NCBI RefSeq assembly: GCF_036507355.1
Contig: NZ_AP027877.1
Origin: Escherichia coli
Lineage (GTDB): Bacteria > Pseudomonadota > Gammaproteobacteria > Enterobacterales > Enterobacteriaceae
DNA length: 64,000 nt
Reading direction: 5' to 3' (one strand)
Notes under the pieces: model-generated
Seen by the model: the letters and a program-made list of their open reading frames with translations, nothing else
Databases searched by the model: none
Told to the model about the DNA's origin: nothing
Shown: piece after piece, positions 54,619-61,392 of the stretch
Layout of the letters: the number at the start of each line of letters is the position of its first letter
Position numbering within the stretch: position 1 is the first letter of the stretch
Translations under genes and position numbers: made by a program

Positions 54619-55509
54619 TTATGCGTCATAGGTTTTTTTTAACGTTTCCATCAACGCCTGCGCCGCAGTAGAAAGCTTATGGTGTGACGAACGCAGTACG
54701 CCTACTCGTCGCTCAATCACTGGATTATCCAGTTCCAGACACACTGCGCCCAGTTCGCTCATCTGCCTGCGGCACAGCGCAGGCACAGCGCTTCCTCCCA
54801 AACCGTTTGCCACCAGCCGCCCAACCGTAACCAGTTGATGGCTTTCCAGCGCCACTTCCAGTTGCGTTCCACTTTGTGCCAACTGCTCCTCCAGCATCAA
54901 CCTGACGGCTGACGGTCGCTGGAGGGTGATAAAATCGAGCGTCAGCAAATCCCGCCAACTCACGCGTTGCCGATTTGCCAGTCGTGAATCTGCTGGAACA
55001 ATAGCGACAAACCGATCCACGCCCAGTGGGGTAAAATGCACATGGCCGCAATAGTCAGGTTCAAAGGCAATACCCATCTCCACACGCCCTTCGCTCACCA
55101 TTTCGATCACCTGCTCATTCACCACATCGTGCACGGTGACATTAATCCCTGAATAACAATCGCGGAAGGTTTTCAGCACCGGAGGCAGAACGTTGGCTGC
55201 AAATGACGGCATCGCTGCCACCGAGACTTTGCCCCGCCTGAGCGTGAATCGCTGACGCATGGCCTCCTCAGTGTTATCCCAGTCAGCCAGCAAAGGCCGT
55301 GCCATCGACAATAGCGTTTCCCCCTCCTGGGTTAATGTCACTTTTCGCGTAGTACGCAGCAGTAAAGCGCCCCCTAAGGCATCTTCCAGTCCTTTAATGG
55401 CAAGACTTAGCGCAGGCTGCGACATATTCAGCCGTTCACTGGCATGGGCAAAGTTCAGAGTGTGAGCTACCGCTAAAAACGCGCGTAACTGTTTGATGCT
55501 CATTTTCAT
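54619..55509 (-). CDS. LysR-family transcriptional regulator (296 aa), divergent from the CoA-transferase operon
   Basis: N-terminal LysR HTH (IKQLRAFLAVAHTLNFAHASERLNMSQPALS), C-terminal substrate-binding domain. Confidence 0.85.
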   Translation of the reverse strand: MKMSIKQLRAFLAVAHTLNFAHASERLNMSQPALSLAIKGLEDALGGALLLRTTRKVTLTQEGETLLSMARPLLADWDNTEEAMRQRFTLRRGKVSVAAMPSFAANVLPPVLKTFRDCYSGINVTVHDVVNEQVIEMVSEGRVEMGIAFEPDYCGHVHFTPLGVDRFVAIVPADSRLANRQRVSWRDLLTLDFITLQRPSAVRLMLEEQLAQSGTQLEVALESHQLVTVGRLVANGLGGSAVPALCRRQMSELGAVCLELDNPVIERRVGVLRSSHHKLSTAAQALMETLKKTYDA

Positions 55510-55650
55510 CTGGCACTCCGTTAACCTACTGAATACATTTAATTAACATTATATTGATAAATAATACAAATGAATGAGTCACAAATTTAAAATTAACAAA
55601 TCATTTTTTGCCCTTAATGATGTTGAAAAGGACAACTGGAGGGCAACTGT

Positions 55651-56358
55651 ATGGCTGGGTTGGATAAACGGGTCGCTACGTATCACGAGGCGCTTGAAGG
55701 ACTTACCAATGAGATGACGATTCTGGCAGGAGGTTTTGGCCTGTGCGGCATCCCGGAGAATCTGATTGCTGAAGTTCGCCACCGTGGAGTAACCGGATTA
55801 ACGGTGGTTTCCAATAACTGTGGCGTAGATGGTTTTGGACTGGGTGTACTACTGGAAAGCCGACAGATCCGTAAAGTCGTCGCTTCTTATGTTGGCGAGA
55901 ATGCTTTGTTTGAAAAACAGGTGCTTAACGGCGAACTGGAGGCGATTCTCACACCACAAGGAACCCTGGCAGAACAACTGCGCGCAGGCGGCGCGGGTAT
56001 CCCGGCGTTCTTTACTGCCACCGGTTACGGTACTCCCGTTGCCGAAGGGAAAGAAGTCCGCGAATTCAACGGTCGCCCGTACATCATGGAACAGGCTATC
56101 ACCGGTGATTTTGCCCTGGTCAAAGGCTGGAAAGCCGACTGGTACGGCAACGTGATTTATCGTCATACCGCGCAAAACTTCAACCCACTGATGGCGGCTG
56201 CCGGAAAAATCACCGTGGTGGAAGTGGAAGAAATAGTGCCACCTGGTGAACTAGATCCTGCCGCTATCCATACCCCGGGGATTTTTGTTAATCGCGTCAT
56301 TCAGGGGCAATTTGAAAAACGCATTGAACAACGCACCCTTAGCCGCAAAGGAGCCTGA
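55651..56358 (+). CDS. 3-oxoacid CoA-transferase subunit A (235 aa, AtoD/ScoA-like)
   Basis: Family-I CoA-transferase alpha subunit ([12 protein letters not shown]); RBS GGAGG upstream. Confidence 0.85.
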
Positions 56359-56360
56359 CC

Positions 56361-57017
56361 ATGTTAACCCGTGAACAAATGGCGATGCGAGTCGCCCGCG
56401 AATTGCGCGATGGCTATTACGTCAATCTCGGAATTGGTATCCCGACCCTGGTGGCAAACTACATTCCTGACGGGATGGATGTGATGTTGCAGTCAGAAAA
56501 CGGTTTGCTGGGAATGGGCGCATTTCCTACGGAAGACGAACTGGACGCCGACATGATTAATGCCGGTAAACAAACCGTTACCGCGCGGAAAGGCGCGGCA
56601 ATTTTCGATTCGGCGCAATCATTCGCCATGATCCGTGGCGGTCATGTGGATCTGACTGTACTTGGCGCATTTGAAGTGGATGTGAATGGCAACATTGCCT
56701 CATGGATGATCCCCGGCAAGATGGTTAAAGGCATGGGCGGTGCCATGGATCTGGTTGCCGGTGCCGAGAATATTATTGTGGTAATGACCCACGCCTCGAA
56801 ATCCGGCGAATCCAAACTGCTTCCTGACTGTACCCTTCCGTTGACCGGCGCCGGATGCATCAAACGCGTCTTAACCGACCTTGCTCTGCTGGAAATTGCT
56901 GACGGAGTTTTCATTCTGCGCGAGCGCGCGCCGGGAATCAGCGTTGCGGAAATCATCGCCAAAACCGCCGGTAAGTTGTTTGTGCCGGAACATGTCCCGG
57001 AAATGCAATTCAACTGA
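56361..57017 (+). CDS. 3-oxoacid CoA-transferase subunit B (218 aa, AtoA/ScoB-like)
   Basis: Beta-subunit with catalytic-Glu region (ENGLLGMG); 2 bp after subunit A. Confidence 0.85.
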   Translation: MLTREQMAMRVARELRDGYYVNLGIGIPTLVANYIPDGMDVMLQSENGLLGMGAFPTEDELDADMINAGKQTVTARKGAAIFDSAQSFAMIRGGHVDLTVLGAFEVDVNGNIASWMIPGKMVKGMGGAMDLVAGAENIIVVMTHASKSGESKLLPDCTLPLTGAGCIKRVLTDLALLEIADGVFILRERAPGISVAEIIAKTAGKLFVPEHVPEMQFN

Positions 57018-60582: not shown

Positions 60583-60593
60583 GGAAAATCATC

Positions 60594-61364
60594 ATGAATT
60601 TACAAGGTAAAACTGCGCTGGTGACGGGGTCCACCAGCGGTATCGGACTCGGTATTGCTCAGACACTGGCAAACGCTGGCGCGCAAGTGATCCTCAACGG
60701 CTTCGGTGATGTTGACGCGGCAATCAATGCGGTTTCTCGTATGGGTAAAACGCCTGGCTATCATGAGGCAGACCTCAGCGATGAATCGCAAATTATCAAC
60801 ATGGTGGCCTACGCATGGCGGGAATTTGGCGGTGTGGACATTCTGGTGAATAACGCCGGGATCCAGTATGTCTCCCCGGTTGAATCTTTCCCTGTAGAAA
60901 AATGGAACGCCATTATCGCTATCAATCTCTCTTCTGTCTTTCACACCACGCGTCTGGCACTGCCAGAAATGCGCACTCGTAACTGGGGTCGGATCATTAA
61001 CATTGCCTCTGTGCATGGGCTGGTAGCGTCGAAAGACAAATCAGCTTATGTTGCGGCAAAACATGGCGTGGTGGGACTCACAAAGACCATTGCTCTGGAA
61101 ACTGCGCAGACCGGTATTACCTGCAACGCGCTCTGCCCTGGCTGGGTGCTGACGCCGCTGGTACAACAGCAGATTGATAAGCGCATTGCGCAAGGCGAAG
61201 ATGCGGAAAGCGCGCGTGACGCCTTACTGGCAGAAAAACAGCCTTCTCGTGAATTTGTGACTCCGCAACAACTGGGTGAACTGGCGCTGTTTCTCTGTTC
61301 GGATGCGGCAGCACAAGTGCGTGGGGTGGCGTGGAATATGGATGGCGGTTGGGTAGCGCAGTAA
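60594..61364 (+). CDS. short-chain dehydrogenase, 3-hydroxybutyrate-dehydrogenase-like (256 aa)
   Basis: TGSTSGIG cofactor motif, catalytic YxxxK (YVAAK), NAG motif; resembles BdhA-type SDRs. Confidence 0.8.
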   Translation: MNLQGKTALVTGSTSGIGLGIAQTLANAGAQVILNGFGDVDAAINAVSRMGKTPGYHEADLSDESQIINMVAYAWREFGGVDILVNNAGIQYVSPVESFPVEKWNAIIAINLSSVFHTTRLALPEMRTRNWGRIINIASVHGLVASKDKSAYVAAKHGVVGLTKTIALETAQTGITCNALCPGWVLTPLVQQQIDKRIAQGEDAESARDALLAEKQPSREFVTPQQLGELALFLCSDAAAQVRGVAWNMDGGWVAQ

Positions 61365-61370
61365 GTGTTC

Positions 61371-61392
61371 GCCGGATGACGCGTCATCCGGC
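61371..61392. terminator. 22-bp perfect palindrome between the convergent SDR gene and osmC (candidate bidirectional terminator or REP-like unit)
   Basis: GCCGGATGACG/CGTCATCCGGC, 6 bp after the SDR stop and 6 bp before the osmC stop. Confidence 0.5.

Follow-up and report, generated by a model that had tools for sequence, protein, structure and literature searches.

Gene sets for the use of 3-hydroxybutyrate (3HB) or acetoacetate are known from Bacillus subtilis, Pseudomonas, and Escherichia coli K-12. To our knowledge, the B. subtilis operon yxjC-scoA-scoB-bdhA contains no gene for a thiolase, for a 3-hydroxyacyl-CoA-dehydrogenase-family protein (HAD), or for a LysR regulator, and we likewise know of no HAD gene in the 3HB loci of Pseudomonas strains PAO1 and KT2440. 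The Ato system of E. coli uses acetyl-CoA as the CoA donor, is controlled by AtoSC, and includes no 3-hydroxybutyrate dehydrogenase, while in P. aeruginosa dhcR-dhcAB-atoB a LysR gene is divergent from genes for a CoA-transferase and a thiolase. In P. putida, fitness defects on 3HB-yielding substrates were described for hbdH, the neighboring permease gene, and atoAB, and Pseudomonas PP_3073 converts (R)-3HB to acetoacetate (PMC13390443). Here, we describe a locus of this kind in a 64,000-nt stretch of the E. coli contig NZ_AP027877.1 (assembly GCF_036507355.1), which was analyzed as a whole and is referred to as the window. Between ddpF and osmC, it harbors a cassette of seven intact open reading frames (ORFs), namely a LysR gene and, divergent from it, six genes that all lie on the plus strand (Table 1). 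We determined its gene content, family membership, synteny, divergence, and distribution, and on this basis propose substrates, a CoA donor, a direction of flux, regulator sites, and a role for HAD.

A putative 3-hydroxybutyrate pathway between ddpF and osmC

We consider it likely that the cassette is a LysR-controlled operon for the uptake of 3HB and its conversion to two molecules of acetyl-CoA, and that it has resided at the ddpF-osmC site since before the Escherichia/Citrobacter split, with about 96% of E. coli having lost it by deletion. Within E. coli it would persist as a presence/absence polymorphism, and homologous recombination would move it between Escherichia lineages. In this pathway, the permease would import 3HB, and a protein of the short-chain dehydrogenase/reductase (SDR) family would oxidize (R)-3HB to acetoacetate with NAD+. 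HAD may offer a stereo-complementary entry, in which (S)-3HB or a related L-3-hydroxy acid would likewise yield acetoacetate. The latter would be activated to acetoacetyl-CoA by a two-subunit CoA-transferase of the succinyl-CoA:3-ketoacid CoA-transferase (SCOT) type, probably from succinyl-CoA, and the thiolase would cleave acetoacetyl-CoA into two acetyl-CoA. LysR probably switches the operon on from a 141-bp region between the divergent genes.

The SDR protein passed the curated cut-offs of two families of 3-hydroxybutyrate dehydrogenases (PRK12429, 369.9 vs. 258; TIGR01963, 342.1 vs. 307.05) and aligned end to end with PDB 5YSS, named "3-hydroxybutyrate dehydrogenase" (486 bits, c. 86% identity); the P. 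putida structure 2q2q reached 388 bits. The rebuilt 5YSS sequence shared 97% identity with the SDR from Citrobacter portucalensis, encoded beside osmC in the cluster of that species (locus L010, 12368-13135), so that the solved protein is an ortholog of the window SDR from the same syntenic operon. The catalytic residues S139, Y152, and K156 were present, as were the carboxylate-binding positions Q91, H141, K149, and Q193, which match those of the P. fragi 3-hydroxybutyrate dehydrogenase (Q94, H144, K152, and Q196) at an offset of -3; the roles of the P. fragi residues are said to have been established by Ito in 2006 and Nakashima in 2009. This protein is predicted to oxidize (R)-3HB to acetoacetate with NAD+.

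The two CoA-transferase subunits exceeded the cut-offs of their families (Table 1). Among solved chains, subunit A was nearest to subunit A of succinyl-CoA:3-ketoacid CoA-transferase from Helicobacter pylori and B. subtilis (3rrl/3cdk, 310 bits), compared to 175 bits for AtoD, and against the AtoD equivalog it scored 198.9, below the cut-off of 315. Subunit B carried the SENG motif at residues 45-48, including the catalytic Glu46. Judging from the closer similarity of subunit A to SCOT than to AtoD, succinyl-CoA is probably the CoA donor and acetoacetate the acceptor. For the thiolase, the score on PRK05656 was slightly below the cut-off (674.4 vs. 688), solved acetyl-CoA acetyltransferases gave 425-610 bits, and the Cys/His/Cys active-site motifs, including CVGGGQG, were present. 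Altogether, the initial annotation of this stretch, which had proposed a 3-hydroxybutyrate/acetoacetate catabolic gene set, was borne out by the placement of the SDR above two family cut-offs and next to 5YSS, and by a CoA-transferase nearest to SCOT, including B. subtilis ScoA. Conversion of 3HB or acetoacetate to two acetyl-CoA is well supported by homology as the predicted function of the cassette.

A different result was obtained for the permease, which the same annotation had called GntP-type. This designation seems to be a database name only, since no GntP model matched and the likeness to E. coli GntT/GntU was marginal: no Pfam or NCBIfam match was found even at E<=10 (including PF02447 and TIGR00791), BLASTP against GntT gave E=0.002 over 159 aa, and hhalign with a GntT+GntU profile a probability of 13%. 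The protein is 81-95% identical from E. coli to other Enterobacterales (Pantoea) and Pseudomonas, and its gene adjoins the SDR gene in all cassette loci examined (Pseudomonas, Pantoea, Providencia, and Azomonas). In P. putida, PP_3074, which resembles the window permease by name ("D-beta-hydroxybutyrate permease"), showed a mild fitness defect where 3HB is an intermediate. Based on this context, import of 3HB by the permease is probable, and it possibly imports acetoacetate as well. An AlphaFold model of the permease from a 10-sequence alignment reached a mean pLDDT of 45, too poor for a fold search.

Substrate and direction of the pathway

Another hydroxy or keto acid as the true substrate, with 3HB turned over as a side activity, seems improbable to us. 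Candidates would be 3-hydroxyvalerate, other polyhydroxyalkanoate monomers, or acetoacetate derived from dehydrocarnitine, as for dhcAB of P. aeruginosa. Such a role would agree with the uncharacterized permease family, with a LysR effector that cannot be assigned from family scores, and with the promiscuity of Family I CoA-transferases and thiolases in general; moreover, dhcR-dhcAB-atoB shares the LysR/CoA-transferase/thiolase core and was found through growth on carnitine. However, the family membership of the SDR as a 3-hydroxybutyrate dehydrogenase is unambiguous, every carboxylate-binding position is retained, and a solved ortholog bears that name; there are no genes for a carnitine dehydrogenase, BKACE, or betaine near the locus, and the permease-SDR pair forms a unit tied to 3HB in Pseudomonas. 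It is extremely unlikely that the operon works in the synthetic direction, with 3HB made from acetyl-CoA as an electron sink and exported by the permease. All enzymes involved can work in reverse, and engineered 3HB producers rely on just this set, but homologous loci in the obligate aerobes Pseudomonas and Azomonas are catabolic, their mutants lose fitness on 3HB-yielding substrates, and a LysR gene combined with a permease gene is a layout typical of inducible catabolism.

Several points weigh against the proposed pathway itself. The CoA donor is derived from similarity, and the LysR effector cannot be named from family scores. Our literature search revealed no paper on the cluster, and no biochemical, expression, or growth data on it, for E. 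coli or other Enterobacteriaceae; in the E. coli W genome paper, the only mention was of production of polyhydroxybutyrate (PHB). As to HAD, the assignment to free acids rests on two motifs and one stand-alone example of a HAD-permease pair. In global similarity, HAD comes somewhat nearer to Clostridium Hbd, at 139 bits, than to CRYL1, at 117, and in Enterobacterales the HAD start codon overlaps the stop of the thiolase gene, an arrangement that would also fit a pair of enzymes acting on CoA esters. Foldseek searches with the HAD model (pLDDT 89) against the PDB did not rank either role above the other: E-values slightly favored Hbd, while query-normalized TM-scores were 0.72-0.74 for CRYL1 and FHMPC dehydrogenase vs. 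0.66-0.68 for Hbd, at a root-mean-square deviation of about 12 A that stems from domain orientation. In regard to the evolutionary part, the polarity of the insertion or deletion is not readable from the junction sequence and rests on outgroup synteny and divergence.

The HAD-family protein: free acid or CoA ester

The substrate of HAD was addressed with an alignment of the window protein and its orthologs, two enzymes acting on CoA esters (Clostridium Hbd and E. coli PaaH), and two acting on free acids (CRYL1 and FHMPC dehydrogenase). The sequence of human CRYL1 used here was confirmed to be identical to PDB 3f3s, and its residue numbering maps onto the right motifs. HAD retained the catalytic residues S119, H140, E152, and N191 as well as D33, and the Ser/His/Glu/Asn set was invariant in the alignment. 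It reached no NCBIfam cut-off; the best scores were obtained for FHMPC_DH (220.5) and PRK06129 (199, cut-off 347), and all CoA-ester families remained below theirs (PRK05808, 180.9 vs. 408; PRK08268, 194.6 vs. 508; PaaH, 165.8 vs. 669). For comparison, a true Hbd from Clostridium reached 486 with PRK05808 and no more than 143 with PRK06129, and CRYL1 had PRK06129 as its best family (329). As HAD lies under the PRK06129 cut-off, we describe it as resembling the CRYL1-like group and do not file it as a member.

Two signatures, PPHxIPLVE and GRRYAxxGP, group HAD and its orthologs with the enzymes of free acids. The CoA-ester enzymes Hbd and PaaH carry HFFNPAPVMKLVE and a short loop G-x-x-x-P-M-G-P (GANHP---MGP), both of which are missing in HAD. 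The loop before GP is three residues longer in HAD than in the CoA-ester enzymes, and an Arg located there aligns with CRYL1 Arg231, which we take to be a substrate-binding residue; a literature search on CRYL1 residue roles gave no result. L-gulonate 3-dehydrogenase (CRYL1) also oxidizes L-3-hydroxybutyrate. In addition, a HAD-family (S)-3-hydroxybutyrate dehydrogenase that converts the free acid to acetoacetate, together with a BKACE enzyme in anaerobes, has reportedly been described for Desulfotomaculum ruminis in 2021 in Appl Environ Microbiol, for which our literature search gave no match.

Gene neighborhoods pointed in the same direction. The HAD gene stays linked to the 3HB locus when the gene order is shuffled, and on one metagenome contig a HAD homolog (49% identical) overlaps a permease homolog (67%), with no thiolase or SDR gene beside the pair. 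This pattern is more readily explained by an enzyme of the imported free acid than by a CoA-ester enzyme, although it is not proof. The contexts of more distant HAD relatives (P0249, P0251, P0253, and P0261) consisted of unrelated genes or short contigs. In Pantoea, the cassette is present and HAD is missing, so that HAD seems to be an optional add-on to the (R)-3HB pathway, not a core step.

On balance, we slightly favor the view that HAD oxidizes free (S)-3HB or a similar L-3-hydroxy acid to acetoacetate. The classical role as (S)-3-hydroxybutyryl-CoA dehydrogenase, in which the CoA-transferase activates (S)-3HB, HAD forms acetoacetyl-CoA, and the thiolase completes the pathway, is somewhat unlikely. 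It would be in line with the 3HCDH_N/3HCDH architecture, the intact catalytic set, the higher score with Clostridium Hbd, the best Foldseek E-values for Hbd structures, and the conserved 11-bp translational overlap of HAD and thiolase genes in Enterobacterales. On the other hand, HAD lacks the CoA-type motifs NPAPVMKLVE and xPMGP and instead has both free-acid signatures and the longer loop, no equivalog cut-off for Hbd or HAD was reached, the Hbd family ranks under FHMPC_DH and PRK06129, the HAD gene of Pseudomonas lies apart from the thiolase gene, and the metagenome contig pairs HAD with the permease only. A broader interpretation builds on the free-acid role. Here, HAD would represent an uncharacterized clade of bacterial free-acid dehydrogenases for (S)-3HB or L-3-hydroxy acids, marked by HFW(H/N)PPHxIPLVE and LGRRY and found in 3HB loci of Enterobacterales and Pseudomonadaceae, the operon would funnel both enantiomers via the unrelated SDR (R) and HAD (S) enzymes, and the permease would found a family distinct from GntP. 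We regard the chances of this interpretation as evenly balanced.

Distribution and origin of the cassette

The cassette was detected in 231 of 5426 complete E. coli genomes (4.3%), always on the chromosome, and is absent from K-12 and O157:H7, which agrees with the strain-variable occurrence assumed in the initial annotation. Among the carriers, 226 of the 231 were at least 99% identical to the window; they include O145:H28 Shiga toxin-producing E. coli (STEC) and strains of human, cattle, poultry, pet, baboon, and rat origin. In cassette-free genomes sampled across the ranking, the junction had a constant length of about 1240 bp, measured from one query end to the other. Two carriers stood out: in Z1323HEC0108 and BEC1-S17-ESBL-07 (H54 and H80), one match was split into two pieces over about 8 kb and one ended at query position 5088 within the permease gene. 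The split match suggests an inserted element, and some carriers seem to have a damaged cassette.

A plasmid search yielded no copy from E. coli, only Klebsiella copies of 73% identity. These copies (hits H81-H84) comprise the LysR/CoA-transferase/thiolase/HAD part, which is located on two 120-kb non-mobilizable plasmids of K. pneumoniae (NZ_CP074582.1 and NZ_CP084170.1) as well as in entries of 5.37 Mb and 1.04 Mb that are filed as "plasmid" but appear to be mislabelled chromosomal sequence.

Gene neighborhoods in other bacteria were compared via tblastn with all window proteins, using one genome per species (33 loci). An identical order of seven genes was found in many species of Citrobacter and in Raoultella, Klebsiella, Serratia, Enterobacter, and Pluralibacter, and, via permease look-ups, in Providencia and Azomonas. 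In Azomonas macrocytogenes, the SDR gene is followed by a gene for an AtoE-like short-chain fatty acid transporter (L051, 9204-10631). The order in a Pseudomonas locus (L041) was HAD, sigma-54 activator, permease, SDR, CoA-transferase subunits A and B, and thiolase, with no LysR gene and a HAD protein of 59% identity that aligned without gaps. The gene in place of LysR (6335-7795) encodes a sigma-54 enhancer-binding protein. In Citrobacter amalonaticus AUH_CA_2023_1 (L032, 7503-13144), the CoA-transferase matches were shortened, no thiolase match was obtained, and the SDR was only 58% identical; this locus appears degraded or poorly assembled.

In particular, ddpF and osmC flank the cassette in many species of Citrobacter, in the divergent "E. 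coli" SCPM-O-B-8794, and in Escherichia sp. E1V33. Synonymous divergence (dS) was calculated by the Nei-Gojobori method with an in-house script. Between the window and Citrobacter, where values were saturated, dS ranged from 1.0 to 3.5 for the cassette genes and from 1.25 to 3.1 for ddpB-F and osmC; towards SCPM-O-B-8794, it was 0.25-0.44 for the cassette and 0.36-0.55 for the flanks. The G+C content of the cassette (0.51-0.57) is like that of its flanks. A second E. coli allele, found in strain 2013C-4282, diverges by about 3% across the cassette, so that the polymorphism within the species is deep. In E1V33 (L003, 6401-13140), identity to the window amounts to 95-100% for the cassette and only 87-94% for the flanks, and it changes abruptly at either end of the cassette. 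This mosaic indicates that the whole cassette was exchanged between Escherichia lineages.

Based on the shared site in Citrobacter and divergent Escherichia, the flank-like dS, the normal G+C content, and the lack of mobility genes, we conclude that presence is ancestral and that most E. coli carry a deletion: the cassette at the ddpF/osmC site appears to predate the split of Escherichia and Citrobacter, with loss in about 96% of E. coli. The insertion proposed in the initial annotation was not upheld, given the same site in Citrobacter and divergent Escherichia, a dS equal to that of the flanks, and the normal G+C content. We also consider it improbable that the cassette is a recently acquired accessory island of a minority of strains. 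The small share of carriers, their high identity, and the clear movement of the cassette between E. coli and the E1V33 lineage would suit an island, as would imperfect 26-nt direct repeats at both cassette ends (54575-54600 and 61370-61395, 81%). However, these repeats were the only island-like trait. Mobility genes, an associated tRNA, a deviating composition, and absence from the outgroup were not found, and no plasmid copy was seen in E. coli. Synteny with Citrobacter and the divergent Escherichia lineage, dS equal in cassette and flanks, and the second allele with its c. 3% divergence likewise speak against recent acquisition, so that we retain the ancestral presence of the cassette followed by its deletion.

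Locus layout, boundaries, and control region

Our ORF list gave the same map as the initial annotation, i.e., a LysR gene divergent from a six-gene operon, and the RefSeq annotation of near-identical strains agrees with it. There, the genes are named LysR family regulator, CoA transferase subunits A and B, acetyl-CoA C-acetyltransferase, 3-hydroxyacyl-CoA dehydrogenase family protein, GntP family permease, and 3-hydroxybutyrate dehydrogenase, so that the cluster is already annotated in public genomes. The operon is indeed tightly packed, with spacings of +2, +9, -11 (overlap), +45, and +11 bp in order; the previously stated range of gaps or overlaps of 2-12 bp thus holds for four junctions, while HAD and permease genes are separated by 45 bp. 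It had further been stated that ddpF and osmC are neighbors in K-12 and that no mobility genes flank the cluster. Both proved correct: in K-12 the two genes are separated by a 55-bp spacer and the cassette genes are missing, and no transposase, integrase, or tRNA gene was found within or beside the cluster. A scan of the whole window at Rfam gathering thresholds revealed no RNA families.

Table 1. Coordinates of the cassette genes, control elements, and flanking features in the window
Feature	Position	Strand	Remarks
ddpF, left flank	53656..54582	+	Core gene, last of ddpXABCDF; 96% aa identical to K-12 DdpF
Left boundary motif CGCTGTAGGACGCGGCATCCGGCTAT	54575..54600		Overlaps ddpF stop codon; imperfect direct repeat (81%) of right boundary motif
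LysR-type transcriptional regulator, 296 aa	54619..55509	-	Pfam HTH_1 and LysR_substrate
AT-rich divergent control region, 141 bp	55510..55650		Three TTAAC boxes at 55521, 55543, and 55593
Candidate -35 TTAACA	55593-55598		Sequence
Candidate -10 AATGAT	55616-55621		Sequence
Shine-Dalgarno GGAGGG	55638-55643		Sequence
3-oxoacid CoA-transferase subunit A, 235 aa, SCOT/ScoA type	55651..56358	+	TIGR02429 (pcaI_scoA), 244.8 vs. cut-off 128.5
3-oxoacid CoA-transferase subunit B, 218 aa	56361..57017	+	TIGR02428 (pcaJ_scoB), 325.7 vs. cut-off 243.55
Acetyl-CoA C-acetyltransferase (acetoacetyl-CoA thiolase), 401 aa	57027..58232	+	TIGR01930, 499.7 vs. cut-off 240.55
NAD-dependent 3-hydroxyacyl-CoA-dehydrogenase-family protein (HAD), 307 aa	58222..59145	+	Pfam 3HCDH_N and 3HCDH; 11-bp overlap with thiolase stop
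Polytopic permease, 463 aa	59191..60582	+	Many hydrophobic segments; annotated "GntP family" or "D-beta-hydroxybutyrate permease"
(R)-3-hydroxybutyrate dehydrogenase (putative, EC 1.1.1.30), SDR family, 256 aa	60594..61364	+	PRK12429, TIGR01963, PDB 5YSS
Perfect GC-rich palindrome GCCGGATGAC/GCGTCATCCGGC	61371..61392		Between convergent SDR and osmC genes; right copy of boundary repeat
osmC, right flank	61399..61830	-	Core gene; TIGR03562 score 204; 99.8% nt identical to K-12

The palindrome at the right end is a probable bidirectional terminator for the SDR and osmC genes. The 55-bp spacer of K-12 resembles a fusion of the left and right intergenic remnants, and the right palindrome arm is kept at the K-12 junction. 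As this pattern fits an insertion and a deletion alike, the junction was dropped as evidence on polarity. At the left edge, the 3' part of ddpF is unusually divergent from K-12 (97.1% nt identity, non-synonymous divergence dN 0.020), compared to ddpD (99.2%) and osmC (99.8%), and between the E. coli alleles the stretch 54120-54598 falls to 93% identity. The 3' end of ddpF looks like a zone of recombination breakpoints at the cassette edge.

The regulator has an N-terminal HTH_1 domain, a C-terminal substrate domain, and a divergent promoter region, as in LysR-type systems. It gave full-length matches to many LysR families, none of them above the cut-off, so that its effector cannot be named. 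In every genus examined that carries the LysR-type cassette, its gene keeps the divergent orientation. The TTAAC boxes show no variation among Escherichia, Citrobacter, Raoultella, Serratia, Enterobacter, and Pluralibacter, and the candidate promoter is likewise conserved from Escherichia to Serratia. In a promoter and terminator scan, counts equaled the shuffle expectation, and the promoter match alone is at chance level; the candidate promoter carries weight only because of its conservation across genera. We infer that the TTAAC boxes are LysR sites, and LysR is probably an activator of the operon acting from the 141-bp region.

Other features of the window

Apart from the cassette, the window revealed an insertion of about 5.9 kb (3588-9480) that splits lsrD, of which the C-terminal 241 aa are left at 2844-3587 on the minus strand. 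Its cargo comprises genes for a Tn3-family transposase (6242-9208, 1289 bits) and a PAS-domain methyl-accepting chemotaxis protein (3791-5368, minus strand), and an unassigned 351-aa ORF (5522-6577, minus strand). Due to this split, the autoinducer-2 uptake operon lsrACDBFG is interrupted in this strain; it is intact in strain A30. Furthermore, an autotransporter of the ECSE_1600 family is present as a fragment of 621 aa (15890-17755), covering profile positions 376-856 of 1806. In strain A30, the autotransporter gene is 5.4 kb long and followed by hipBA, which was not seen in the window ORF list.

Significance and comparison with known systems

If the proposed pathway is correct, about one in 25 E. 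coli, including the O145:H28 STEC lineage and excluding O157:H7 and K-12, should be able to use 3HB, a ketone body and PHB monomer, and the same genes are carried by Citrobacter, Klebsiella/Raoultella, and Serratia. This capacity could be relevant to life in ketotic hosts, in urine, or wherever PHB decays in the environment. The locus also has a bearing on how "gains" in pan-genomes are read, as a seemingly accessory E. coli locus appears to be ancestral, core-like, and in the course of being lost. Database names probably mislead for HAD (acyl-CoA dehydrogenase family or L-gulonate dehydrogenase) and the permease (GntP family). If HAD indeed proves to be a dehydrogenase of free (S)-3HB, a ketone-body pathway for two enantiomers would be encoded here, and a widespread annotation would be corrected. 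Known metabolism is not overturned by these findings. The cassette is an uncharacterized representative of a known pathway type, all of its parts except HAD and the permease are related to known enzymes, and what goes beyond annotation is its evolutionary status, the probable free-acid HAD, and a permease that is not demonstrably GntP.

Among described systems, those of Pseudomonas (P. putida hbdH-PP_3074-PP_3075 with atoAB PP_3122/3; P. aeruginosa bdhA-PA2004-hbcR and dhcR-dhcAB-atoB) share the SDR family, the SCOT-type CoA-transferase, and the thiolase with the E. coli cassette, and also have the same permease family beside the SDR gene, with 81% identity to a Pseudomonas homolog. In contrast to Pseudomonas, E. 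coli combines all functions in one LysR-controlled operon of six genes with no sigma-54 activator, and it harbors an extra HAD gene between the thiolase and permease genes, which is also present in the Pseudomonas locus L041. The B. subtilis yxjC-scoA-scoB-bdhA operon follows the same logic with a permease, ScoAB, and a 3-hydroxybutyrate dehydrogenase, and its ScoA (3cdk) reached 309 bits with the window subunit A. In E. coli K-12, atoDAEB likewise brings together a CoA-transferase and a thiolase with an acetoacetate transporter; AtoD is the more distant relative (175 vs. 310 bits). Regarding HAD, the free-acid enzymes of its family available for comparison are CRYL1 (L-gulonate 3-dehydrogenase or "L-3-hydroxyacid dehydrogenase", EC 1.1.1.45) and FHMPC dehydrogenase, to which the window protein is 27-33% identical.

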